Shown: positions 11,041 through 56,777 of the stretch, in pieces
How positions within the stretch are numbered: the first letter of the stretch is position 1
Layout: each line of letters starts with the position of its first letter
Source: Candidatus Geothermincolales bacterium
GTDB taxonomy: Bacteria; Actinomycetota; Geothermincolia; Geothermincolales; RBG-13-55-18
Direction of reading: 5' to 3'
Length of the DNA stretch: 56,777 nucleotides
NCBI GenBank assembly: GCA_037478635.1
Contig: JBBFMI010000001.1
Span: forward strand, 1-56,777
Program-made: the position numbers and the translations under genes
Notes under the pieces: generated by a model
Database searches by the model: none
What the model was told of the DNA's origin: nothing
The model's input: the letters and a program-made list of their open reading frames with translations, nothing else

Positions 11041-11958
11041 ATGGAAGAAAAAGGAAGTCTCCGGGGCACCCTTTCCGGTTACCTCAATTACTTCGGCCTC
11101 AGGTTATTCTGTTTTCTCGCCGGCGTCATCGATCCGGAAAAAGCCCATAGGATAGCGTCAAGGTTAGGGGATGTCGCCTATTTCCTGTCGAGGAAAAAGA
11201 GGGCCGTGGTGAAGGAGAACCTACGGAGGGTGTGCCCCGGGGCGGGCGAGCGAGAACTGGATTCGATGACCAGGAAGAGCTTCCAGAACTATGCCCGCTA
11301 CTGGCTGGATTTCCTCCGGTGCTGGCACCTCACGTTCGAGGAGATATATCGGATGGTCGTTCCCCACGGAGTGGAATGGATAGACCGTTGCCTGGAGAAG
11401 GGCAAGGGGGTGATATTTGCCCTGCCCCATTTTGGGAGCTGGGATATGCTCGGTGGCTGGGTCGGCCTCCAGTACCCGAGCATGTGGGCGGTGGCCGAAC
11501 AGCTCAAGCCACGAGCGCTCTTCGAGTTCCATACCGAGCTCAGGAGGAGGATGGGGATCAAGATCATCCCCCTGGGGGAAAACACCGCCGAAAGGGTCAT
11601 AAAGGCTTGCATGGACAACGGCATAGTATGCCTGCTTTCCGACCGGGTGGTGGCCGGGAGTGGCGTGGAGGTGGAGTTCTTCGGGGAGAGAGTCCTCTTC
11701 CCGGTTGGCCCGGCACTGCTGGCGGTCAAGCTCGGCACCCCCATACTTCCCTGCCTCACCATCCGGGAGGGCGGGATGTACCACGGCTACGTGGGGCCAC
11801 CCTTGGAGGTGGAGGTCACCGGCGATACCCGGCGGGACGTCCAGGTGAACATGCAGAAGCTGGCGAGGGTCTTCGAGGATTTCATCAGGCGCGACCCCAC
11901 CCAGTGGCACATTTTCCAGCCCATCTTCGCTAAAACGAAGCGAGATGGTGGTCGATAG
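11041..11958 (+). CDS. Lysophospholipid/lipid A-type (HtrB/LpxL family) acyltransferase, PatA-like
   Basis: HFGSWD (HX4D acyltransferase motif) with family-typical length. ATG 11041 follows GGGAGGGAG. Position after the PI synthase gene matches the mycobacterial PIM acyltransferase. Confidence 0.75.
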   Translation: MEEKGSLRGTLSGYLNYFGLRLFCFLAGVIDPEKAHRIASRLGDVAYFLSRKKRAVVKENLRRVCPGAGERELDSMTRKSFQNYARYWLDFLRCWHLTFEEIYRMVVPHGVEWIDRCLEKGKGVIFALPHFGSWDMLGGWVGLQYPSMWAVAEQLKPRALFEFHTELRRRMGIKIIPLGENTAERVIKACMDNGIVCLLSDRVVAGSGVEVEFFGERVLFPVGPALLAVKLGTPILPCLTIREGGMYHGYVGPPLEVEVTGDTRRDVQVNMQKLARVFEDFIRRDPTQWHIFQPIFAKTKRDGGR

Positions 11959-12086
11959 TTGGGGCGAAGACGTTCATCCGAGCCTGGTGTCGACCGATAA
12001 GTGGGGACCGAAAGGGAATAAGGCGGGATTCCGTCGTGTGGAGTACGGGTTGGGTGGTTTTTCATAGGCCATCGGATAGACGGGGG

Positions 12087-13058
12087 GTGGCCGAGCTGGA
12101 GAAGTTCAGCAAACTCTGGAGGATCATCAAGCTCTTCACCTTGATCGAGGGCAACCCGGGCGTTAAGGCGAAGGACCTGGCAGAACGCTGCGAGGTCTCG
12201 ATTCGTACCATATACCGGGATATCCAGCTGATGAAGCTGGCCGGTATCCCCCTTTATTACGACGACGGTTACCGAATCGCGGAGGGCTTTTTCCTGCCCC
12301 CGCTGCAACTCGACCTCATGGAGACCCTTTCTCTCCTCATGGGCGCGGAACTTCTTGCCCGCCAGAAGGGAACCCCTTTCCAGAGGGGCATCGAGAGCGC
12401 GGTCCAGAAGATATACGCCTCCTTGCCCGCGGGATTGAGAGAGGAGGCCCGCCGGGAATCAGCGAGGTTCAGCCCCGCGTGGCAACCGGCGGTGGATTAC
12501 CAGCGACGCCTGTCCATCCTGGAGGTACTGGAAGAGGCCATCGAGGAAAAGAGGTCAGTGCGCATCGATTACCGGGCCATGTCCACCGGCGAGTGTACCG
12601 AGCGGCTGGTGGATCCCTACGGCTTCCTTTTCCGGAGCAACGGTTGGTATCTCGTGGCCCATTGCCATCTCAGGGGAGAGATAAAGATATTCAAGGTGGA
12701 CCGCATCCTCGATGCCGTCATCACGGGGGACAGGTTCGAGGTCCCGGAGGACTTCAACATCAGGGAGTACATGGGCGAGGCCTGGCAGTTGATGAGGGGA
12801 GAACGGGTGTACCAGGTGGCAATACAGTTCCCTCCCCACGTGGCCCCCTTTGTAACCGAGTGCATATGGCATTTCTCCCAGACCTGTGAGCCTCGGGAAG
12901 ACGGCAGCGTCATCCTGAGGTTCCGGGTAAGCGGGTTGGAGGAGCTGGCCAACTGGCTGTTGGGGTTTGGCGGTGACGCCCGGGTCCAGGAGCCACGGGA
13001 ACTGGAGGATCTCCTGGTGGAGAAGGCATCCCGGGTTCTCCAGGTATATAGAAGGTGA
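12087..13058 (+). CDS. HTH + WYL-domain transcriptional regulator (PafBC/BrxR-type architecture)
   Basis: N-terminal wHTH LWRIIKLFTLIEGNPGVKAKDLAERCEVSIRTIYRDIQLM; WYL core VRIDYRAMSTGECTERLVDPYGFLFRSNGWYLVAHCHLRGEIKIFKVDRI. Start uncertain (GTG 12087, or 12036 in the ORF track). Confidence 0.8.
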   Translation: MAELEKFSKLWRIIKLFTLIEGNPGVKAKDLAERCEVSIRTIYRDIQLMKLAGIPLYYDDGYRIAEGFFLPPLQLDLMETLSLLMGAELLARQKGTPFQRGIESAVQKIYASLPAGLREEARRESARFSPAWQPAVDYQRRLSILEVLEEAIEEKRSVRIDYRAMSTGECTERLVDPYGFLFRSNGWYLVAHCHLRGEIKIFKVDRILDAVITGDRFEVPEDFNIREYMGEAWQLMRGERVYQVAIQFPPHVAPFVTECIWHFSQTCEPREDGSVILRFRVSGLEELANWLLGFGGDARVQEPRELEDLLVEKASRVLQVYRR

Positions 13059-18556: not shown

Positions 18557-19639
18557 TCACCGCTCCTTTATTTCCAGCTCCATCACCGGTCCGTCCAGAG
18601 ACCAACTGGCCACCGAGGACGGAAGCCCGAAGAGCACCTCGTAATACCCCTGGAGAAGTCCCACCATCAGGAGGTGGAGGGCCGGGTTTATCAGTCGCAT
18701 GAAAAGGCCGTCGGGTTTTACCTGGAATTCCTCGAGGTAGCCCAGCCCCCTTACCGCTAACAACCGCCTGAATTCGTCGAGGGTACCGATATCGCTGGGG
18801 GAGTAGATCCCGCCCTCCTTCACGAATTGACGTTGGGCTTCCACTATGGTCCTGGGGATCTCCTCCCCGAGTTCCCTCTCCATTTCGCCGAAGACGGCCT
18901 CCAGGTAAGCTGGCCCCACCATGCAGACACGCCGCCCGGTGTTTTTGTCCCTGATGGTGCCCCCTTTCGTTTCCCAGGAAAACCAGGACAGCTCGGCGGG
19001 TCCTCCACATCCTTCGCAGGTCTCCAATGCATAATCCACCTCTCGGTAGGGGAATTTCTTGGTCTGGAGTCTTTCCCTGAACTGTGGCGGGTGCTCGGAG
19101 GGGAAGACTTTGATCCATACCCTGTCTTCCGCCAACGACCTGTACACCACGTCGTTATCCCGGGAGGTCACCGATTCCACTGCCCCCGTCATGTCCCCGC
19201 ACCACAGGGGCACCGAGTAGGGATTGATGACCACCTGGGCAAGATGGTCTTCGTCGTCGTACTCCAGGCGGTAGCCCTCCAGGACCGGTTTGCCGTAGCC
19301 CATGACCACGGATATGGCGTTGTTGGCCTGGATAAGGGGCTCCACCGGGATCTCCTTCTTCCTAACGCCCTCTTTCACCTCCGGCGGGGTCAGCCGGTCG
19401 ATGTAATCCCGGGTGGCCCTCCTCTTCGTCTCTATGATGATCCTCTCTATGGGGACCGTGAGTAGATCCTCGATCTTTCTGAACAGAAGGTCCAGGTTGT
19501 CTACCTCTATCAGCACCATTCGATGGTCGGGATCGAGGCTCTGCACCGTGACGCCCCCCTTCATCCAGCGATGGTTGCTCACGAAGAGCAGGGGAGCGCC
19601 ACAGGATGGGCAGAATTCGAAGGCGTTCTCTTCGTTCAT
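18557..19639 (-). CDS. Hypothetical protein; two tandem modules, each CxxCG + V4R-like region
   Basis: Module 1: FCPSCGAP ... INPYSVPLWCGDMTGAVESV. Module 2: TCEGCGGP ... INPALHLLMVGLLQGYYEVL. GGTGGAG RBS. The V4R assignment rests on pattern resemblance only. Confidence 0.55.
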   Translation of the reverse strand: MNEENAFEFCPSCGAPLLFVSNHRWMKGGVTVQSLDPDHRMVLIEVDNLDLLFRKIEDLLTVPIERIIIETKRRATRDYIDRLTPPEVKEGVRKKEIPVEPLIQANNAISVVMGYGKPVLEGYRLEYDDEDHLAQVVINPYSVPLWCGDMTGAVESVTSRDNDVVYRSLAEDRVWIKVFPSEHPPQFRERLQTKKFPYREVDYALETCEGCGGPAELSWFSWETKGGTIRDKNTGRRVCMVGPAYLEAVFGEMERELGEEIPRTIVEAQRQFVKEGGIYSPSDIGTLDEFRRLLAVRGLGYLEEFQVKPDGLFMRLINPALHLLMVGLLQGYYEVLFGLPSSVASWSLDGPVMELEIKER

Positions 19640-43390: not shown

Positions 43391-43905
43391 TCACTCCTTG
43401 ATCGGGGCGGGGGTGAACGGGGCTTTCCGCCCGTGATACGTCTGGTAGATGGGATTAGGGAGGGGCACTGATATCCCGGTCTGCAAGGTCAACGGTCGGT
43501 TTGGTCCATTTGTACGAGTCCTTTTCGGACGAATGGTCCTACAGGAATATGGCCATGACGTCGATAATCTATAATAGAAAAAGATCGAGAATTGATCGGG
43601 AATCGGTTGGCTGGCTCTGCCTTGTGCGAGGGCCGTCGAAGGTGTCCTTGAGCCAACACCACTTTTAAGGGAGCCGATTTCCGCGGATCGAAGTAACGCC
43701 CGGGAGGGGACTACGGAGGATCCAGCGGTAGGCGCCCACCTGCAGAGGACGCAGGTTCATGGATACGGCGGCAACGGCAAGGCGGGGCCTCGTTTTAAAT
43801 TCACTTATCTATTGACCTTTTTCTCTCCGACGTTCCCCAGATATCATCCGGTCTTGACCCTGGTTTATCCTTTAAAGGAGACGAGTGCGCTGATCGTTCG
43901 GGAAG

Positions 43906-49297: not shown

Positions 49298-50297
49298 CCG
49301 GTTCCCGACCCCGAAGTGGAAGGTAATCACCATCGTCGCCTCCATACTGCTGGCCTCTGTCCTGGTCGCCCACCTCGTGAATCACTTTTTCTTCCCCGGC
49401 AAGAACGGCGAGAAAGTCCACGTGGTCATCGAGAAGGGAGAGGGATTGGGTGCCGTCGCTGAAAAGCTGCGCGAGGAGGGGATCATCAGGAGTTCGCTCC
49501 TGCTCCGTCTCTACGCGATGGTGAGAAGAGGCGATACGCTGGTTCTCCCTGGTCATTATCTGTTCGAAAGGGGGATGAGGTACGGGGAGGTCTTGGACCT
49601 GTTGGCGCAGGGCCCAAACTACCAGGTGAGAGTGACCGTTCCCGAGGGGCTCACCCTCCACCAGACAGCCGAGATATACTCTTCGGTCCTCGGTTTCACG
49701 GTCGAGGATTTCTTGGCGGAATGCAACTCGCGATTGCATCCCACCCCTTTCATCGGCGACAGGGATGTCACCTTGGAGGGGTTTCTCTTCCCCAAGACAT
49801 ACGATCTGCCACCGGACGCCACTCCGGGGACAGTGGTGGAGACGATGCTCAGGCAGTTCGAGAAGGAAGCCGCAGAACTGGATTGGGGCAAGGCGGAAAA
49901 ACGCGGTCTTACGCCATACGAGGTGGTAATCGTGGCCTCCATGATAGAGAAGGAGGCCATGCTCGACGATGAAAGGCCATTGGTGGCCGCGGTCATCTAT
50001 AATCGCCTCAGGTTGGGCATGCCCCTCCAGATAGACGCCACGGTGCAGTATGCCCTTCCCCGATGGAAACCTCGCCTAAGCTACCAGGATCTCCAGGTGG
50101 ATTCGCCGTATAACACCTATCGACATAAAGGGCTTCCTCCCGGTCCGATATGCAGCCCGGGCAGGAGCAGTCTCGAAGCAGCACTCGATCCCGCTTCGGT
50201 GGATTACCTTTATTATGTCGCCACCGGGGACGGCGGCCATTTCTTCACCTCCGACTACGGAGAGTTCCTCGAGGCGAAGAAGAGATATCAGCCTTGA
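49245..50297 (+). CDS. mltG: Endolytic murein transglycosylase MltG (YceG-like)
   Basis: N-terminal TM, LysM-like region, catalytic VASMIEKEA, SPYNTYRHKGLPPGPICSPG. The listed start overlaps ruvX by 53 nt, so the true start may be further downstream. Confidence 0.88.
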   Translation: MWKSHEKDRKERTLTIFDRFPTPKWKVITIVASILLASVLVAHLVNHFFFPGKNGEKVHVVIEKGEGLGAVAEKLREEGIIRSSLLLRLYAMVRRGDTLVLPGHYLFERGMRYGEVLDLLAQGPNYQVRVTVPEGLTLHQTAEIYSSVLGFTVEDFLAECNSRLHPTPFIGDRDVTLEGFLFPKTYDLPPDATPGTVVETMLRQFEKEAAELDWGKAEKRGLTPYEVVIVASMIEKEAMLDDERPLVAAVIYNRLRLGMPLQIDATVQYALPRWKPRLSYQDLQVDSPYNTYRHKGLPPGPICSPGRSSLEAALDPASVDYLYYVATGDGGHFFTSDYGEFLEAKKRYQP

Positions 50298-50444
50298 TCG
50301 AGAAAAACGGCCGGCCATAGTCGTTTTGCCTTTGGCCTTGTCAAAAGGATTTTTAAACATGACGGACTTTAATTTCCATCCGATGGAGTCGATGTTGAAG
50401 GAGTAAGGTGATCGCCCGTCAAAGTCACTAAGAGCCGGGCAGAT

Positions 50445-50450
50445 TAGAAT
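50445..50450 (+). promoter_or_regulatory. Candidate -10 element (ATTAGAAT context) ahead of the V4R/hydrogenase-like operon
   Basis: TAGAAT at 50445-50450 in the AT-richer 192-nt gap after mltG. The octamer ATTAGAAT is the same as at the putative pimA promoter. No good -35. Confidence 0.3.
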
Positions 50451-50489
50451 CGAAGAGTCCACTGGCAATGAACCCAGGAGAAAGAAGAC

Positions 50490-50978
50490 ATGGTCGGTAG
50501 CATGAACGGCGCATCAGGCAGGGGGATGTGGCTTGCGGAGACGCTGGCCGTCTTTGGGCTATCCGCTGAGATGGCGATAGGCCCGTCGACGCCCAGGGTC
50601 ATCTACTTCTCGGCCAAAGACCTAGGGGTTAGAGAGGGCAAGAGGTTCGATCACACGGATGACCTCGAACAGGCGCTACGCTGGATCCTGAGAACTGATG
50701 AAGGTCACTGGTCTGTCGTTTTCTGGAAGGATGTGGACGAGGAGGATTTCTGGGAGACGGATGGGAAATTCGCCTTCATCCGCCTGTTGATGAGAGATTG
50801 TCTCGTCAGGGACGCATGCTTGGCGACGGGTATCAGGGTTGGCGGGACCGTCTGCGAAGCCCTTCATGGCTACTGGGCAGGGCTTCTGGAGAGCATTTTC
50901 TCCCGGAGGGTGGACATCTTGACCGAGCACGCCGGTTTTGGGAGCTGCCTTTTGTGCTTGAGGACCACCTCCGGTTGA
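50490..50978 (+). CDS. Hypothetical protein with C-terminal V4R-like (4-vinyl reductase type) small-molecule-binding domain
   Basis: C-terminal VCEALHGYWAGLLESIFSRRVDILTEHAGFGSCLLCL resembles the V4R pattern C-x2-L-x-G-x2-AG ... V-x-V-x-E ... C-x-F. AGGAGAAAG RBS. Pattern resemblance only. Confidence 0.45.
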   Translation: MVGSMNGASGRGMWLAETLAVFGLSAEMAIGPSTPRVIYFSAKDLGVREGKRFDHTDDLEQALRWILRTDEGHWSVVFWKDVDEEDFWETDGKFAFIRLLMRDCLVRDACLATGIRVGGTVCEALHGYWAGLLESIFSRRVDILTEHAGFGSCLLCLRTTSG

Positions 50979-51005
50979 GTCGCCAAGAGGAAAAGGTGAA
51001 GAGTT

Positions 51006-51902
51006 ATGGATAGGTTGGCAATTATACAGCTCGGCTCCTGTGGAGGCTGCCAGCTCTCGCTACTGGATCTCGGGAAAGACTTCCTCGACATCATGGAAAT
51101 GTATTCCATTGAGCATTTTCCGATGATAAGGGAGGGAGAGGAATTCCCGGAGTCTGACCTCGTACTGGTGGAGGGCACGGTGAGACATGCCCGACACTTA
51201 GAGTCACTGAGAAAGGTTAGGGGCAGGGCGAGGACCCTAGTTGCCCTGGGGACATGCGCCGTGTTCGGGGGGGTCCAGGGCCTGGCGAACGTGAGCGGTG
51301 GTGGTAGGTGGGAGGAATCCATTTCCAGGGCTCGTGCGGGCGAGAGCGTCCCGCTATTCACCAGGAGGGTCCTACCACTCGACGCCTATGTGCCGGTGGA
51401 CGTGAGGTTACCCGGTTGTCCGGTGCCCGCCGGGCTTTTGGCATCCTTCCTCAAGGGATCGGCGGAAGGGGCGAGGCCTACCAGGGAATCTGCCACCGTG
51501 TGCGCGGAGTGCCCACTTAGAGGAGGTGGTGAGAAAGGAGGCCCGTTCCGCTTCACCGAGAGGAAAGCCGAATCGGGGATATGTTTTCTGGAGCAGGGTT
51601 TTCTCTGTATGGGGCCACTTACCCGGGACGGTTGCGGCGCCCTTTGCCCCGGATCTTCGGGATACCCCTGTCGGGGATGTCGCGGGCCTTCTGATGGGGC
51701 CTTGATCTTTCAGGAATTGGATCCCATGGTCGAGTCCATCAGGAGGCTTTCCCGCACTGCGAGCAATAAGGATGAACAGGTGGCGGGTTATTTCATGGAC
51801 AGGGCTCACGCGTTTTTCATGTTCTGCGCGGCAGAACCGACATTCCGAGACAGGAGGGTCGGGGGGACTTCTGGGATCGTGTACAGGTTGGGAGGTGAAT
51901 GA
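51006..51902 (+). CDS. [NiFe]-hydrogenase small subunit homologue, group-3 (MvhG/FrhG/HydD)-like, three predicted Fe-S clusters
   Basis: Proximal-cluster motifs GSCGGCQLS, GTCAVFGG, PGCPVP. Distal/medial region VCAECP ... ICFLEQGFLCMGPLTRDGCGALCPGSSGYPCRGCRGP. Confidence 0.8.
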   Translation: MDRLAIIQLGSCGGCQLSLLDLGKDFLDIMEMYSIEHFPMIREGEEFPESDLVLVEGTVRHARHLESLRKVRGRARTLVALGTCAVFGGVQGLANVSGGGRWEESISRARAGESVPLFTRRVLPLDAYVPVDVRLPGCPVPAGLLASFLKGSAEGARPTRESATVCAECPLRGGGEKGGPFRFTERKAESGICFLEQGFLCMGPLTRDGCGALCPGSSGYPCRGCRGPSDGALIFQELDPMVESIRRLSRTASNKDEQVAGYFMDRAHAFFMFCAAEPTFRDRRVGGTSGIVYRLGGE

Positions 51903-51963
51903 GCCCCTCGTTACACCGTGGCCGTGGTAGGCCACTGGGAGGCAGAAGAGGCGGTTGAGAGAT

Positions 51964-53271
51964 ATGGCTACATATGGTCTGGCCAGGGTTTTTGGTGAGG
52001 CCCACCTGAGGGTCGAGGTCGAGGAGGGAGGAAAACCCTCGGTTGGCTTGGCCTGCGAAGGTTACAGGGGTTACGGGATCATCGGCGCAGGATGCCACGG
52101 GGAATTCCTCCCCGACCTCTTATCCAGGCGCTGCGGGGTCGATTCCCTGTATCACAGGATGGCAGCCTGCCTGGCCATGGAAAAGGCCCTGGGAGTGGAA
52201 GTACCGGAAAGCGCCGGGAGGGTTAGGGAGTTGTTATTGGCCTGCCAGCTGTTCCGTCGGCATTCGCTGACCATGACCCTGCACGTACTTCCAGATCTCC
52301 TGTTCCCGGCCTCCGACCCAGGGGTTAGAAACCTGGTGGGACTCTTCCGGGTGGACAGGGACGTGGTGGGGAGGATGATGGCCCTTAACTCTTGGGGGGA
52401 GAGCGTCTTGAGGAATATCTCTGCCCGGGCCGTCCATCCGCTGACCCCGGTGCCGGGCGGACTCACCTTTATTCCGGGTGAGGAGGCCATCGATTGGTTG
52501 AGGAAATCGATCCCCGAGATGATGGGCCTTGCCAGGGAGACCTCGCGCTTGGTCAGGATGTTGTTAAGGCGTAATGAGGACCTGGTGGGAGAACTGGGGA
52601 TACAAGATGGTTCGCAGATGGTGGCGGAAACACCGCCGTTCGGAGGTTCGTGGGTTGGCGTGAATATAGCGGAGTTCACCGGCGAGAGGCGAAAGATCGG
52701 GGCCCTGGATTTGCTGGAGAGGGCTGAAAAGGTCAGCCTGTCCGACACCCTACTGGAGGGTTACCGCGTCTCCGGAGACGGTTACGGGATCCTTACCGGG
52801 CCCCTTTCCAGGATAAACGTGATGGGTTCTTACGGCACCGAGATGGCTGACTCGGAGCTGGAGGAGATCAAGAAGATATGGGGTTTCCCTTTCCGGGGAA
52901 TACTTCTATCCCATGCACTCCGCCTGGCAGAGATGATCATGGCTCTGGAGAAGATAACCGGGCTGATTTCCGAGGCCGATTCCTGGGGGAGGGGGGAGTC
53001 GAGGAACGAAGTCCCCAGGGGAAGTGGCGAAGGGGTCGTAGCCCTTGAGGGAGCGGAAGGCTTGCACCTTCTGAAGGTAAAAGTGGAAGAAGGCTACGTT
53101 TCCGGTACCGAATATGTCGCGCCGTTACAATGGAACCTCGTTGGTATGCTGGATATGCTGGAACGGGAAGGGCAGAAGGTGGGAGAAGACACGGGTGAGG
53201 CTCGATGGCTGAGCAGGTTAGAAGTGGCGGTGAGGGCCTATGCCCCCTGTTTCTTCTGCGCGGCTGGCTGA
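51964..53271 (+). CDS. [NiFe]-hydrogenase large-subunit homologue with degenerate active-site motifs (pseudo-hydrogenase or sensor candidate)
   Basis: Collinear with large-subunit motifs, but RIEGH is RVFGE, RxCGxCxxxH is RRCGVDSLYH, EAPRGxLxH is EVPRGSGEG, PTxWN is APLQWN, and DPCxxCxxH is APCFFCAAG followed by the stop. ATG 51964 (the ORF track lists TTG 51955). Confidence 0.72.
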   Translation: MATYGLARVFGEAHLRVEVEEGGKPSVGLACEGYRGYGIIGAGCHGEFLPDLLSRRCGVDSLYHRMAACLAMEKALGVEVPESAGRVRELLLACQLFRRHSLTMTLHVLPDLLFPASDPGVRNLVGLFRVDRDVVGRMMALNSWGESVLRNISARAVHPLTPVPGGLTFIPGEEAIDWLRKSIPEMMGLARETSRLVRMLLRRNEDLVGELGIQDGSQMVAETPPFGGSWVGVNIAEFTGERRKIGALDLLERAEKVSLSDTLLEGYRVSGDGYGILTGPLSRINVMGSYGTEMADSELEEIKKIWGFPFRGILLSHALRLAEMIMALEKITGLISEADSWGRGESRNEVPRGSGEGVVALEGAEGLHLLKVKVEEGYVSGTEYVAPLQWNLVGMLDMLEREGQKVGEDTGEARWLSRLEVAVRAYAPCFFCAAG

Positions 53272-53297
53272 AATGACGTGGAGGAGGCCTGGCAGTG

Positions 53298-53570
53298 ATG
53301 TCTGAAGCAAGGGTGGAGCTGGATCTTGCAAGATGCGTGGCTTGCCTGGAATGCTTGGAGGTCTGCCCGCGATCTTCCGGCATTGACCACCCCGTGTTCG
53401 ATAGGTCCGAGGAAGGTCTGCCCAAGGTAGCGTATCCGGGCAGTTGCATTTCCTGTCACGATTGTGCCGTGAGATGCAGGGCGATGGCCATACGGATCAA
53501 CGGGAAGTGTTTTCCCCCACCCCGAATGGTCGATCCGGTTCTTTCGAGCAGGATTCAGACCATATACTGA
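53298..53570 (+). CDS. 2x[4Fe-4S] ferredoxin-domain protein
   Basis: CVACLECLEVCP and CISCHDCAVRC (CxxCxxCxxxC twice); GGAGGAGG RBS. ATG 53298 (the ORF track lists GTG 53295). Confidence 0.85.
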   Translation: MSEARVELDLARCVACLECLEVCPRSSGIDHPVFDRSEEGLPKVAYPGSCISCHDCAVRCRAMAIRINGKCFPPPRMVDPVLSSRIQTIY

Positions 53571-53773
53571 TGACCGACGGTTTGAGCATGGATGTGAGTG
53601 ATGTCACCGGGAAGAGTCTACAGCCTCAAAACCTGGTAGCCAGGCTAAACAATTGGGCGGCTTTGACGATACAGTAATAAGCGTTGACCGTGTTATACAC
53701 GAGTAAACTTATGGTAAAAATGGCGTTTGACGAGATCGAGTAAGCATCGGGAATGGGCGGGAGGTGGTAGGTT

Positions 53774-54127
53774 TTGCCGGATCTGAGGAGAGTCCTGGAG
53801 GAACTTGTGGCCACCGGGGCGGTTAAGGCCTGCCTGGTGGTGGGCAGGGATGGTTTCATCATAGAGGCAGTGGGAAGCGATCCCTCCCAACTGGAAGCGG
53901 TGGGCGCTATCGCACCCAGTTCCCTGGGTGCGGCGGAGGTCATCGGACTCGAACTGGCCCAAGGTCCTATGAGCCAGGCCTTGTTCGAGTTCGAGAAGGG
54001 TGCCATCATGATGAGCGCAGTGGGTCCCGATGCCATCCTGGTGAGCATCCTTCCCTCGGGCGCTAACCTCGGGAAGGCCAGGTACGATATCCGGAAGTTC
54101 CTGCCTGCTATCGAGAAAGCCCTGTGA
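53774..54127 (+). CDS. Roadblock/LC7 (MglB-like) domain protein, paralogue 1
   Basis: About 117 aa; AVKACLVVGRDGFIIEAVGSD ... ALFEFEKGAIMMSAVGPDAILVSIL, a typical Robl/LC7 pattern. TTG start after GGAGGTGG. Confidence 0.8.
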   Translation: MPDLRRVLEELVATGAVKACLVVGRDGFIIEAVGSDPSQLEAVGAIAPSSLGAAEVIGLELAQGPMSQALFEFEKGAIMMSAVGPDAILVSILPSGANLGKARYDIRKFLPAIEKAL

Positions 54128-54164
54128 ACGTTGATCTTGTCGATGGTCCAGAGGTGGTGAAAGG

Positions 54165-54539
54165 GTGGCAACCGAGAGGCTGGAAAGGATCAACACGGTC
54201 CTTCGAGAGTTAAGGGCAAACCTTCCCGAGGTGGAAGCGGTGGTGTTGATAAGCAGCGATGCCATGGCCCTGGCTTCGGACATCTCTGACGATTCCGATG
54301 AGGAGATGATAAGTGCCCTGTCGAGTTCCGTGCTGAACATGGGGGAGAGGGCCGCCAGGGACCTCAGGCGAGGGGTGTTGGAGCAGGTGTTCATCAAGGG
54401 TGACCAGGGATCCCTTCTCCTCATGCATTGCGGTCCCCAAGCCCTGCTGTCGTTGATGGTCAAGCCAGAGGCCAAGCTGGGCGTGGTGCTCATGGAGGCT
54501 AAGAGAACGGTAGAGGAACTCTCCAGGCTCTTTGATTAG
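54165..54539 (+). CDS. Roadblock/LC7 (MglB-like) domain protein, paralogue 2
   Basis: LRELRANLPEVEAVVLISSDAMALAS ... QVFIKGDQGSLLLMHCGPQALLSLMV; GTG start after GAGGTGGTG. Confidence 0.8.
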   Translation: MATERLERINTVLRELRANLPEVEAVVLISSDAMALASDISDDSDEEMISALSSSVLNMGERAARDLRRGVLEQVFIKGDQGSLLLMHCGPQALLSLMVKPEAKLGVVLMEAKRTVEELSRLFD

Positions 54540-54590
54540 CCCCGACTCGGTATCCCATGGGATCTGGGAGGAAAAAAGGAGGTAAGATCC

Positions 54591-54989
54591 TTGTCGGAGT
54601 CGCGGGAAGAAAGGCTCAGGAAAGCCCTGCAGGAGCTTATATCGAAGTCAGCCGAGGTCGATGCAGCCGCTGTCGTCAGCATGGACGGATTGGTGATGGC
54701 CTCGGTCCTACCCAACACATTGGAGGAGGATAGGTTAGGGGCCATGTCCGCGGCTTTGCTCAGTCTGGGCGAGAGGACCTCCGAGGAGCTGGGTAGAGGA
54801 GAGCTGGCCCAGGTGTTCGTAGAGGGAAAGGAGGGTTACGTGTTCCTCATGGCCGCAGGACCCGATGCAGTCCTGACGGCCCTGGTCAGAAAGGGCAGCA
54901 AACTGGGATTGGTGTTATACGATGTCAAAGGGGCTGCAAAAAAGATAGCGGAGATAATCGCCTCGGAATTCAAGATTGAGTACGAATAA
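54591..54989 (+). CDS. Roadblock/LC7 (MglB-like) domain protein, paralogue 3
   Basis: LQELISKSAEVDAAAVVSMDGLVMAS ... QVFVEGKEGYVFLMAAGPDAVLTALV; TTG start after AAGGAGGT. Confidence 0.8.
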   Translation: MSESREERLRKALQELISKSAEVDAAAVVSMDGLVMASVLPNTLEEDRLGAMSAALLSLGERTSEELGRGELAQVFVEGKEGYVFLMAAGPDAVLTALVRKGSKLGLVLYDVKGAAKKIAEIIASEFKIEYE

Positions 54990-55093
54990 AACGACATATT
55001 TTATATGAGAATAAATTAGAGGGGTGGATCGACCATCGTCCGGAAGTTCCGCCGTCCTCTTTGGTTTAAAATAATAACAAGAGATGATGAGAG

Positions 55094-56777
55094 ATGGCTC
55101 TTAAGGGCAGTTTGAAGGACTTCAGCCTCCCCGATCTATTCCAGTTGCTGAACTTCAGCAAGAAAAACGGCACGCTTAACCTCGTGAGGGGGAATTCCAG
55201 GGGATATATCTGTTTCCGCAACGGGGAGGTCTTTTTCGCCACCACCAACTGGAAACGGCAATCCCTGGGCATGAAGCTCATGGCCGCGGGACTCATCACC
55301 AAGGAACAACTGGAAGAAGCGCTCGGGTTGCAGCGTACGGAGGCAAAGGGGCAGAGGCTGGGGCAGATCCTGGTGCGTCTGGGATACATAACCCAGGAGC
55401 AACTCGAGGTCTTCGTGGAGGAGCAGATACAGGATGCCGTTTTTGAGATGCTACGCTGGACCGATGGGGAATTCGATTTCCAGCCTGGGGTGGTGTTCCC
55501 GGAGGAGGATATTGGCCTCTCCATCAGCACCGAGGAGCTGATAATGGAAGGCTCCCGGCGTCTGGACGAGTGGAACCGCATCGAGAAGAAGATACCCCAC
55601 CTTGACGTGGTCTTCAGGATGAAGTCAATGCAGGGCAGGGAGGCTGCACAGATTAGCCTGACTCCAGAGGAATGGATGGTGCTCACCTACGTGGATGGCG
55701 AGAGGACGGTCCGCCAGATAGTGGAACTCACGGGGATGAGCACCCTCCAGACCTGCAAGATCCTCTACGGCCTGATCAGCTCCGGTTTGCTTGAAAACGT
55801 TACCCCTCAACCGGAGGAAATAGAAACGGAGAAGAGGTTGGAGGAGCTCGCCCAGGAGCTTGAGCGAGCGGAGCAGGAAGTGACCACCGAGGTTAAGGAA
55901 ACGGAGGTCACGGGAGAGAAGAGAGTCTATCCGGTTGAGGAAGAGATGGGCTTGACCGAGAGGGTGGAAAGCCTGCTCCGGGAGCTGGAAAGGCCGAAGG
56001 AGGAGCTCAGGGAGATCGGGGATACCGAGACCGGTCAGCATGAGGAGACCGTAAAAGAAGCGGAAGACCTTTTGAGGCAACTCGAGGAAGAACGAGAACG
56101 GGAGGTTTATCAGCAGCAGGTCACGGAAGGGTTTGCCGGGGAGATCTCAGAGGAAGAAACCCGATCTTCAACGAGAGCTGAGACGACGTTATCGGGGGAG
56201 ATCTCCCAAGAAGAAGAAGTGGTGGTGGGAGCGGAAGAAACCGAAGAGATCCTGGTGGTGGAAGAGGAGGAGGCCGGGGTCTCCGTGGAGGATGCTTCTG
56301 CCGGGGCGGGAGAGCTGGTCGAGGAGCCGGGGATATCAACCCTTGCCGGTAAGGCCGAGGAAGAACCTTCCGCGGGCATGGCGGTTGAGAGCGATAGACC
56401 AAAAGACCTCCTGAGAGAGAGCCTGGAAGAGGAGAGACGAAGGCTGGAGGAGCTGAAACGACAGACCCTAGCCGATGCACTGGAGGCATCTACAGAGATA
56501 GAGGTGGTAAAAGGCGGCGGAAGGTTGAATGTCCCCGAAGGGCTGATAGATGCTGACGAGACCGTGGAACTCAAACCGTCCCGTCACATCGGTACAGGCG
56601 AGAGAAAGCCCGTACAGGAAGGGGACTTGTTGCACGAAAGCGAGCAAGCCAGAAAGGCGAAGATGTCTTATCTGGCGAAGAAATACGGCATTGATTTTGA
56701 TGAATTGGAGCAAAGGAGAGAGGAAGAACCGAAAGATGCCATAGATACACCTCTTGAAGCAAAGGAGAAAGAGGGAG
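55094..56777 (+). CDS. PATAN/DUF4388-domain protein with helical MshEN/T2SSE_N-like insert and long acidic coiled-coil tail; 3' end outside the window
   Basis: Not in the supplied ORF track because it has no stop. I translated it codon by codon from ATG 55094 (two in-frame TGA codons just upstream) to nt 56777 and found no stop (more than 561 aa). N-terminus [30 protein letters not shown] is the DUF4388/PATAN signature. It continues ...[11 protein letters not shown] and a wHTH-like [30 protein letters not shown]. Confidence 0.8.

Follow-up and report, generated by a model that had tools for sequence, protein, structure and literature searches.

To our knowledge, the well-known hydrogenase modules that work without H2 chemistry, those of complex I, Fpo, Mbx/Mbs, and Ehr, are membrane-bound relatives of the group 4 [NiFe]-hydrogenases. 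In these modules (NuoB/NuoD in complex I), which are coupled to ion-pumping subunits, the proximal [4Fe-4S] cluster is kept, the NiFe ligands are lost or reduced, and the chemistry at the subunit interface does not involve H2. The group 4 transitions are ancient, and their intermediates are gone. That a hydrogenase can serve information rather than energy is also an established concept, and regulatory hydrogenases signal via a histidine kinase. The subject here is a soluble system, the Hyl operon, which lies in a 56,777-nucleotide stretch of DNA (contig JBBFMI010000001.1, positions 1 to 56,777; hereafter the window) from a Candidatus Geothermincolales bacterium of the Actinomycetota. Its hydrogenase-type small and large subunits, HylS and HylL, are encoded with a ferredoxin and a small protein of predicted V4R fold. 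On balance, they probably form a cytoplasmic iron-sulfur module that descends from Mvh-type (group 3c) hydrogenases, is kept by selection, and does not cycle H2; the redox or sensor role given to it below is one that we infer.

By every measure used (NCBIfam models, sequence searches against the PDB, and fold), the closest described relative is MvhAG of the Mvh/Vhu (group 3c) enzymes. MvhAG and HylS-HylL share the gene order of small subunit then large subunit, and MvhG and HylS share a cytoplasmic-looking small subunit with a 12-Cys, three-cluster pattern. Unlike the HdrABC-MvhAGD complex, the Hyl locus has no MvhD or HdrABC nearby and has an additional V4R subunit, and the partner of Hyl is a two-cluster ferredoxin rather than a polyferredoxin. 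The MvhB polyferredoxin has ∼12 clusters in roughly 400 amino acids (aa). HylL itself departs from MvhA: it has Asp where the second Cys of the active site should be, Glu for the pendant Arg, Phe for the proton-gate Glu, and APC for DPC, and it has no C-terminal extension. A likeness to mvhG-A-B, which had been drawn from the sequence alone, holds for the order of the small and large subunits and fails for mvhB, whose resemblance to the ferredoxin gene is one of position only.

Two further systems bear on the comparison. The group 2b H2 sensors HoxBC/HupUV have a large subunit without a C-terminal extension, as HylL does, and keep the standard four-Cys NiFe(CO)(CN)2 site (PMC8159394). Both they and Hyl are soluble and encoded beside signal-transduction genes; however, Hyl is of group 3c descent, has altered ligands, has no histidine kinase gene in its locus, and neighbors Roadblock, PATAN, and GTPase genes. 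With the group 4-derived modules, Hyl shares paired large and small subunits, an intact proximal cluster, and altered NiFe ligands. It differs from them in being soluble and group 3c-derived, in the three clusters of HylS, in having no membrane partner, and in that HylL keeps most ligand positions as metal-binding residues.

Three plus-strand open reading frames lie at 51006-53570, and a sequence-only reading of the DNA, which took them for a hydrogenase gene trio of small subunit, large subunit, and ferredoxin, gave coordinates and families that are both confirmed (Table 1). What it overlooked is a fourth gene, encoding the V4R-fold protein, immediately upstream. Gaps within the V4R-HylS-HylL-ferredoxin unit are 27, 61, and 23 bp, whereas 192 and 203 bp separate it from the flanking genes; given this difference, the four genes are read as one operon. 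In each locus recovered, the order is alaS-ruvX-mltG-[V4R-HylS-HylL-Fdx]-[Roadblock x2-3, PATAN, GTPase]-aroE-pilB-pilT.

Table 1. Features of the Hyl operon and its downstream neighbors (positions in the window)
Feature	Position	Strand	Basis or remark
V4R/Bet3(TRAPPC3)/H-NOX-fold protein (predicted), 162 aa	50490..50978	+	AlphaFold2 model and Foldseek
HylS, MvhG-like [NiFe]-hydrogenase small subunit, 298 aa	51006..51902	+	PF01058, VhuG, MvhG 5odc_E
HylL, Mvh-type large-subunit homologue	51964..53271 (51955 if read from TTG)	+	Homology, AlphaFold2 fold
HylL proton gate, R-V-F-G-E for canonical R-x-E-G-H (MvhA RVEGH)	51985..51999	+	Gate Glu to Phe
HylL L1 motif, RRCGVDSLYH for RxCGxCxxxH (MvhA RICGIC)	52126..52155	+	Second, bridging Cys to Asp60 (GAT)
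HylL E-G-A-E-G for E-A-P-R-G	53047..53061	+	Pendant Arg to Glu365 (GAA)
HylL L2 motif, APCFFCAAG then TGA, for DPCLSCATH and extension	53242..53271	+	Asp to Ala, His to Gly
2x[4Fe-4S] ferredoxin, 91 aa	53295..53570	+	Fer4 matches, two CxxCxxCxxxC motifs
Sigma-28/WhiG-like promoter motif (putative), TAAA-N15-GACGATAC	53646..53672	+	In 203-bp gap before Robl1
Three Roadblock/LC7 (MglB-like) genes	53774-54127, 54165-54539, 54591-54989	+	PF03259, E=1e-13 to 1e-18
PATAN (DUF4388/PatA_N) protein, N-terminal 561 aa of ∼1200, runs off window	55094..56777	+	PF14332

HylL has 435 residues when read from the ATG at which its orthologues start, and 438 from the TTG upstream. It passes the cut-off of PF00374 (32 bits against 25.8) with a match limited to residues 55-104. 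Its best NCBIfam model is VhuA, at 134 bits against a curated cut-off of 800; ShyA (107 bits, cut-off 700) and FrhA (73 bits, cut-off 392) fall short as well, and NuoD models do not match it. MvhA (5odc_F) is among its best solved relatives by both sequence and fold. An AlphaFold2 model (predicted local distance difference test score, pLDDT, 81; predicted template-modeling score 0.87) superimposes on 7t2r_D and on MvhA with template-modeling (TM) scores of 0.84-0.86 and suggests that HylL keeps the fold of a hydrogenase large subunit. As VhuA and VhuG, both group 3c, are the top NCBIfam models for HylL and HylS, the group 3-like character proposed earlier for the pair is upheld.

The replacements in the active site were mapped by HMMER alignment to the solved MvhA structure and by direct reading of the codons. 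The sequence-only reading had held that several invariant residues are lost, and this is correct for the pendant Arg, the gate Glu, the Asp of DPC, and the terminal His; among the four Cys that ligate Ni and Fe, however, only one is lost, the bridging Cys that is Asp60 in HylL. The L1 His, Cys57, and both L2 Cys (Cys429 and Cys432) are retained. The TGA stop follows G435 directly, at the canonical cleavage position, and the canonical tail of ∼25 aa is missing. The pendant Arg sits near the Fe-bound cyanides, so a carboxylate in its place should disfavor an Fe(CN)2CO unit. This Arg has been described as strictly conserved, and even an R-to-K mutation strongly lowers rates (PMC10430524). Judged by its sequence, the window HylL falls outside the catalytically competent group 3c hydrogenases, four defining features of which were tested and are absent from it.

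Sequencing error or a frameshift is ruled out as the source of these changes by the GAT and GAA codons, by the lack of any rescuing frame, and by the presence of the same residues in independent assemblies (NCBI, JGI, ENA, and Logan). The four Ni-ligand Cys are not all present in the MvhA alignment, and no alternative reading frame was found in HylL that would restore the Cys or the C-terminal tail.

The small subunit tells a different story about its metal sites, in that nothing is lost. HylS passes PF01058 (E=4e-25; 88 bits, cut-off 27), has VhuG as its best NCBIfam model (157 bits, below the curated cut-off of 450), and aligns with MvhG (5odc_E), its best solved relative, at E=4e-46; NuoB models give weak partial matches only. 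The CGGC, GTCAVFGG, and GCP motifs and the Cys-rich distal region pointed out in the sequence-only reading all have counterparts in MvhG: GSCGGC, GTCAVFGG, PGCP, and the eight-Cys distal region match throughout, and all 12 iron-sulfur Cys are aligned, four proximal and eight medial and distal. HylS is thus predicted to carry three [4Fe-4S] clusters. Across 53 distinct orthologues, C12, C15, C84, C138, C166, C169, C193, C201, C210, C214, C222, and C225 are invariant. No twin-arginine motif is found at the N-terminus of HylS, which by the look of that terminus is cytoplasmic. The ferredoxin gene starts 23 bp 3' of HylL behind a GGAGG ribosome-binding site, and the eight Cys of its product (C13, C16, C19, and C23; C50, C53, C56, and C60) are invariant in 55 orthologues. 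It scores 23 bits against the VhuB model, whose cut-off is 600. Together, HylS and the ferredoxin would keep all five iron-sulfur clusters, three in the former and two in the latter.

The remodeled large subunit belongs to a family. A search of 5.8 billion proteins yielded 12 relatives with identities of 37-97%, and all of them have CG-x-D, E-x-x-E-G, and APC and stop early like HylL. In a profile search of 1.84 billion cluster representatives, four family members score 439-675 bits and the next score is 324 bits. Most of the 150 best matches have REGH, CxxC, EPRG, and DPCxxC; below the family boundary, a tail at the C-terminus is usual too, a few other sequences there are divergent, and the pendant Arg is present in most of the canonical matches. 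A scan of one genome per GTDB species found 20 loci, all in metagenome-assembled genomes of Actinomycetota, including Ca. Solincola and Ca. Geothermincola (class Ca. Geothermincolia), and a metagenome scan with the Roadblock protein Robl3 as query added 78 more. In more than 50 of these Actinomycetota loci (Geothermincolia and relatives), Hyl orthologues lie at the same chromosomal position, and the hosts are hot-spring and subsurface bacteria. The active-site changes are shared by orthologues that are 33-97% identical, found in 20 genomes at the species level and in >40 loci from metagenomes; of the 23 complete large subunits obtained by genome and contig look-ups, 19 have the CxxD replacement. 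In neighbor-joining (NJ) trees without support values, the family is monophyletic and sister to canonical Mvh-like sequences; it is restricted to its lineage and does not fall inside a known active subgroup.

Within the family, the active site varies in a graded series at one locus. In clade E (metagenome contigs that we label L029, L058-L071, and L101), the gate is mostly RIQGR, L1 is CxxC, the pendant-Arg motif is DSPRG with Arg in most members, and L2 is [N/I/S/T]PCxxCGTH followed by a stop. In the Geothermincola clade (L016-L020, L049, and L051), the gate is RI-x-GD, L1 is CxxC, the Arg motif is ESPEG (ESPGG in L020), and L2 is APCxxC. The Solincola and window clades (the window and L001-L015) combine a variable gate with CxxD in L1, E-x-x-E-G, and APCxxC or, in a few members, SPC. 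In L027, the gate is KTPGR, L1 is CxxC, the Arg motif is ESSEG, and L2 is NPHFHD, in which Cys3 has become His and Cys4 Asp. The sets run from four Cys and Arg, through four Cys and Glu, and three Cys, Asp, and Glu, to two Cys, His, Asp, and Glu. At the pendant-Arg position, every CxxD orthologue has Glu, as do L027 and, with one exception, the members of the Geothermincola clade. The proton-gate position varies across the family, and one orthologue only retains Glu there; neither the C-terminal extension nor the Asp of DPC occurs in any member.

Two phylogenetic scenarios for the Cys-to-Asp change were compared with NJ trees without support values. The HylL tree suggests two independent events. 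This is disfavored by the AlaS tree, in which the window and Solincola clades are sisters, so that one event suffices; a single change in the window and Solincola lineage is the more likely history.

Selection has acted on the whole operon. Compared with a 97%-identical relative, the ratio of non-synonymous to synonymous substitution rates (dN/dS) is 0.056 for the V4R gene, 0.050 for HylS, 0.134 for HylL, and 0.145 for the ferredoxin, values that mark each of the four genes as evolving under purifying selection. Neither D60 nor E365 varies within its clades. The ligand positions are C, D, or H across the family, and the change of a Cys codon to Asp or His needs two nucleotide changes. Taken with the invariant iron-sulfur Cys, the low ratios indicate that selection protects the electron wire while the catalytic site is rebuilt.

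The dN/dS values of 0.05-0.14 rule out a pseudogene, as does the fact that all complete orthologues examined have intact frames. The same observations bear on the wider proposal that the genes are a decaying relic or a sequencing or assembly artefact, or that HylL serves as a mere structural chaperone of HylS without a metal site. HylL does diverge faster than its neighbors, the ligand set does differ by clade, and the operon has been lost in some lineages, all of which this proposal would explain. It is nevertheless scarcely credible in view of the purifying selection, the same substitutions and intact frames in independent assemblies, the invariance of D60 and E365 within clades, and ligand changes that go only to metal-binding residues by two nucleotide changes each.

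In clade E, the operon is missing from L072 (7988-10387), L074 (3876-5715), and L075, where mltG is followed directly by the Roadblock genes. In L080 (1901-3769), V4R, HylS, and HylL are lost and the small ferredoxin is kept beside Robl2.

The combination of altered residues under purifying selection with invariant iron-sulfur ligands is the one expected if a module has been repurposed, not if the gene is dead or the enzyme cycles H2, and a hydrogenase-derived redox or sensor module is also what the sequence-only reading had favored over a standard H2-cycling enzyme. Since the ligand positions change only to Asp or His, which are classical metal ligands and are reached by two nucleotide changes each, a metal site seems to persist. 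The pocket of HylL would then still hold a metal, with harder ligands and in a center other than NiFe, and the complex would no longer cycle H2. Electrons may enter from the ferredoxin and travel by way of the distal, medial, and proximal clusters, in this order, until they reach the remodeled pocket at the interface of the large and small subunits. This interface is where complex I and Mbs, in modules derived from hydrogenases, act on substrates other than H2, and by analogy a non-H2 reaction might take place there in Hyl. The V4R protein would probably bind a small hydrophobic ligand, acting as a substrate-presenting or signal-output subunit.

The assignment of this fourth protein comes from structure prediction. 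Its gene lies 27 bp upstream of HylS (5-30 bp in the related loci measured) and no locus with HylS and HylL is without it. Pfam searches, including PF02830, give no match for three orthologues even at E<=10, and neither phmmer nor profile searches of the PDB with the 162-aa protein find one. Foldseek comparison of an AlphaFold2 model (pLDDT 72) with the PDB places the V4R sensor domains of PoxR, MopR, and DmpR first (E=1.5e-5, TM score 0.6), followed by TRAPP Bet3/TPC6 (E ∼2e-4 or weaker), Asgard TRAPPC3, H-NOX, and the V4R protein MJ1460. A 76%-identical homologue is labeled "predicted hydrocarbon binding protein" at JGI. C104, C122, H126, and C153 are invariant in 47 sequences and form a probable structural Zn site by analogy with PoxR and Thor-TRAPPC3, in which a similar Cys/His site binds structural Zn and which are thought to bind small ligands (PMC10933270). 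The predicted fold and the conserved Cys/His positions thus match the V4R/TRAPPC3/PoxR-MopR-DmpR group, and a ligand-binding role has been suggested for Asgard TRAPP/V4R proteins (PMC10933270). Unlike known V4R proteins, the 162-aa protein stands alone, has no Pfam V4R match, and is encoded directly upstream of a hydrogenase-type small subunit; no report of V4R paired with such a subunit was found in the literature searched.

Several considerations weigh against a repurposed module. Metal content, cofactor, and activity are all inferred, and the AlphaFold2 model of HylL gives neither metal nor pocket geometry. HylL is 33-66% identical across loci, compared with 57-81% for AlaS, and this faster change than in housekeeping neighbors could mean relaxed constraint as well as changed function. 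The V4R assignment rests on a model with pLDDT 72 and one COG-style name, and Pfam V4R gives no match. As HylL still has three of the four Cys, it may hold Ni or Fe in an unusual site that binds H2. Moreover, true [NiFe]-hydrogenases occur in related clades, and the Hakuba assembly is reported to contain hyp genes (PMC7325909), so maturation of HylL is possible in principle.

The last two points lead to the proposal that Hyl is still an H2-activating [NiFe] enzyme or an H2 sensor, with Ni-Fe held by three Cys and Asp, and with Glu as a base replacing Arg and Glu. In addition to the Cys, the L1 His is retained and the predicted large-subunit fold appears intact; sister clades at the same locus keep four Cys and, in clade E, mostly Arg too; and extension-less large subunits can mature, as in the regulatory hydrogenase (PMC8159394). 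The site is hard to reconcile with H2 chemistry, however, when an Arg described as strictly conserved has become an acid, the gate Glu and the DPC Asp are gone too, and a carboxylate stands in place of a bridging thiolate. L027, with His and Asp for both L2 Cys, shows the family to be independent of a four-thiolate site, and the scores lie far under every curated hydrogenase cut-off (134 against 800 and 157 against 450). A Hyl that activates H2 is accordingly regarded as very improbable.

The family has no description in the literature searched. A genomic study of related clades (Merino et al. 2020) screened catalytic subunits for characteristic cysteine motifs (PMC7325909), and by such a screen CxxD proteins may have gone uncounted.

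Degenerate soluble large subunits seem to recur elsewhere, and no published account of them was found. An archaeal HdrA-MvhD(FlpD)-MvhG-MvhA cluster (L110 4679-9290 and L111 1260-3905) encodes a degenerate large subunit, which we label P0050, with MCGSN in L1, ESPEG for EAPRG, and GPCFSH-stop at its end (Arg to Glu, Cys to Asn). NiFe-site residues seem to have been lost here independently and in parallel, in an Mvh module still attached to Hdr, and the cluster indicates that Mvh modules can be kept after their NiFe ligands erode. Further eroded group 3-like large subunits occur in metagenomes (L112 1747-3072, L113 1305-2630, P0073, P0078, P0154, and P0162). In P0040, which is encoded beside a 188-aa small subunit, L1 has no Cys (RMSAISS), EAPNG stands for EAPRG, and the end is GPTL.

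Downstream of the operon lie the Roadblock and PATAN genes. In related loci, the gene of an MglA/CvnD-like small GTPase comes after PATAN, and then aroE and pilB/pilT; in the window, the GTPase gene lies beyond the end. No extra domains that would link the ∼1200-aa PATAN protein to redox sensing were found in it. These genes resemble MglA/MglB, PATAN-associated MglA, and the conservon CvnA-D, and they adjoin pilB/pilT; their link to Hyl is one of position only. MglA/MglB/PATAN gene neighborhoods are of a known type (PMC4316618). Class-wide (e.g., L001 12189-17956), identities are mostly 80-98% for the Roadblock proteins, the N-terminus of PATAN, and the GTPase, above the 57-81% of AlaS; Robl1 and Robl3 range from 82 to 97% and Robl2 from 58 to 92%. 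Robl1 is confined to clades with an Arg-to-Glu large subunit and is missing from clade E and from lineages without Hyl.

The gap before Robl1 holds a motif, TAAA-N15-G[A/T]CGATA, that we take to resemble the sigma-28 consensus. In 13 of 20 related loci, it sits ∼95 bp before Robl1 (same position in the window, L004, L007, L009, L011, L013, L014, L020, L021, and L023-L026), and 14 of its 17 matches in 911 kb, both strands counted, are at the Robl1 site. No such motif is found upstream of the Hyl operon. On this sequence evidence, Robl1 begins a transcription unit of its own, and the motif would place the Roadblock-PATAN-GTPase operon in a motility-type regulon. The only other match in the window (11931-11958, plus strand) lies just before a WYL/HTH regulator gene at 12036-13058.

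The neighborhood raises the possibility that Hyl is a sensor input to the adjoining Roadblock x3-PATAN-MglA-like GTPase module, read out via the V4R subunit and steering type IV pilus motility (redox-taxis or hydrogenotaxis). What is read out would be the redox state of the complex or, in ancestral four-Cys/Arg forms, its occupancy by H2 or a ligand. Hyl is found directly upstream of Roadblock-PATAN-GTPase-aroE-pilB/pilT in every locus recovered (>50) and nowhere else. The Hyl and GTPase units together fill the interval between mltG and aroE, which in more distant relatives follow one another directly, and in clade E the gaps from mltG to aroE are only 3-170 bp. The ferredoxin kept beside Robl2 in L080 after the loss of the other three genes is consistent with such a link. 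V4R/Bet3 and Roadblock/longin folds build the GTPase regulators TRAPP, Ragulator, and MglB (PMC10933270), and V4R is the sensor domain in PoxR, MopR, and DmpR. Furthermore, clade E large subunits are without a C-terminal extension, like H2-sensing hydrogenases (PMC8159394), and the operon has no catalytic partner module.

Much of this can be read otherwise. Synteny is rigid in these lineages all the way from rarA or aspS to pilT, so being adjacent weighs little by itself, and a conserved sigma-28-like promoter in a gap of 170-580 bp belongs to the Roadblock operon alone. The GTPase module stands without Hyl in distant lineages (L083-L106) and remains intact after at least two losses of Hyl inside clade E (L072 and L074/L075); V4R disappears together with HylS and HylL there and in L080. 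The rates are sharply unequal, with the Roadblock and GTPase proteins far more conserved than HylL, and a survey of prokaryotic MglA/MglB/PATAN neighborhoods never uses the word "hydrogenase" (PMC4316618). Coupling of Hyl to the GTPase is thus a minority hypothesis, and an unlikely one. A more specific form, in which V4R-HylS-HylL-ferredoxin would be the sensory head of a G-protein circuit, is quite unlikely; in it, a redox signal (H2 in ancestral four-Cys/Arg forms) would pass to V4R, then to a Roadblock platform, to the nucleotide state of the MglA-like GTPase, and finally to type IV pilus polarity.

The rest of the window offers no partner for a repurposed Hyl module. Upstream are housekeeping genes only: rpsB, tsf, pyrH, frr, dxr, ispG, proS ... 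pdxST, yebC, and ruvCAB, continued by queA, tgt, secDF, relA, hisS, aspS, rarA, nifU, alaS, ruvX, and mltG. Gene content was established by Pfam scans of most genes in 1-45.8 kb and, for the remainder, by eye or by synteny with annotated loci. On the same basis, no hyp or endopeptidase genes occur in the window, as the sequence-only reading had stated, although the absence of hyp from a 57-kb window says little. Neither the window nor related loci have Hdr, MvhD, diaphorase, F420, or membrane partner genes nearby, and FlpD/MvhD, HdrA, and CCG-domain genes are found neither in the window nor in the +/-10 kb flanks examined in related loci. A generic scan for sigma-70 promoters and terminators over 50200-55200 gave nothing useful, with counts below shuffled expectation. 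An Rfam scan found no riboswitch or small RNA in the operon gaps; its sole match is a 6S/SsrS RNA far upstream, between aspS and rarA (43611-43792, plus strand; RF00013, 68.5 bits against a gathering score of 46.4). The window starts inside the C-terminus of a sigma-70 region 4 protein (1-324), and a 360-aa minus-strand open reading frame at 18557-19639 has coding-like codon bias, an N-terminal zinc-ribbon-like CxxC, and no Pfam family.

Hyl illustrates the re-use of the hydrogenase scaffold. It presents the same kind of transition as the group 4 relatives, in a soluble Mvh-type enzyme and with the stages still represented by living orthologues at a single chromosomal locus. This series is a tractable system for asking which metal center replaces Ni-Fe and what the pendant Arg and the bridging Cys do. 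Databases automatically annotate HylL genes as "F420-non-reducing hydrogenase large subunit" or "nickel-dependent hydrogenase large subunit," which is a warning for metagenomic surveys of H2 metabolism. If the link to the GTPase is true, bacterial small GTPases would have in Hyl a sensory input of a new kind. If Hyl is the sensory head of the circuit, it would bring redox-taxis or hydrogenotaxis to anaerobic, acetogen-like Actinomycetota, through a bacterial V4R and Roadblock assembly that would echo eukaryotic TRAPP and Ragulator.

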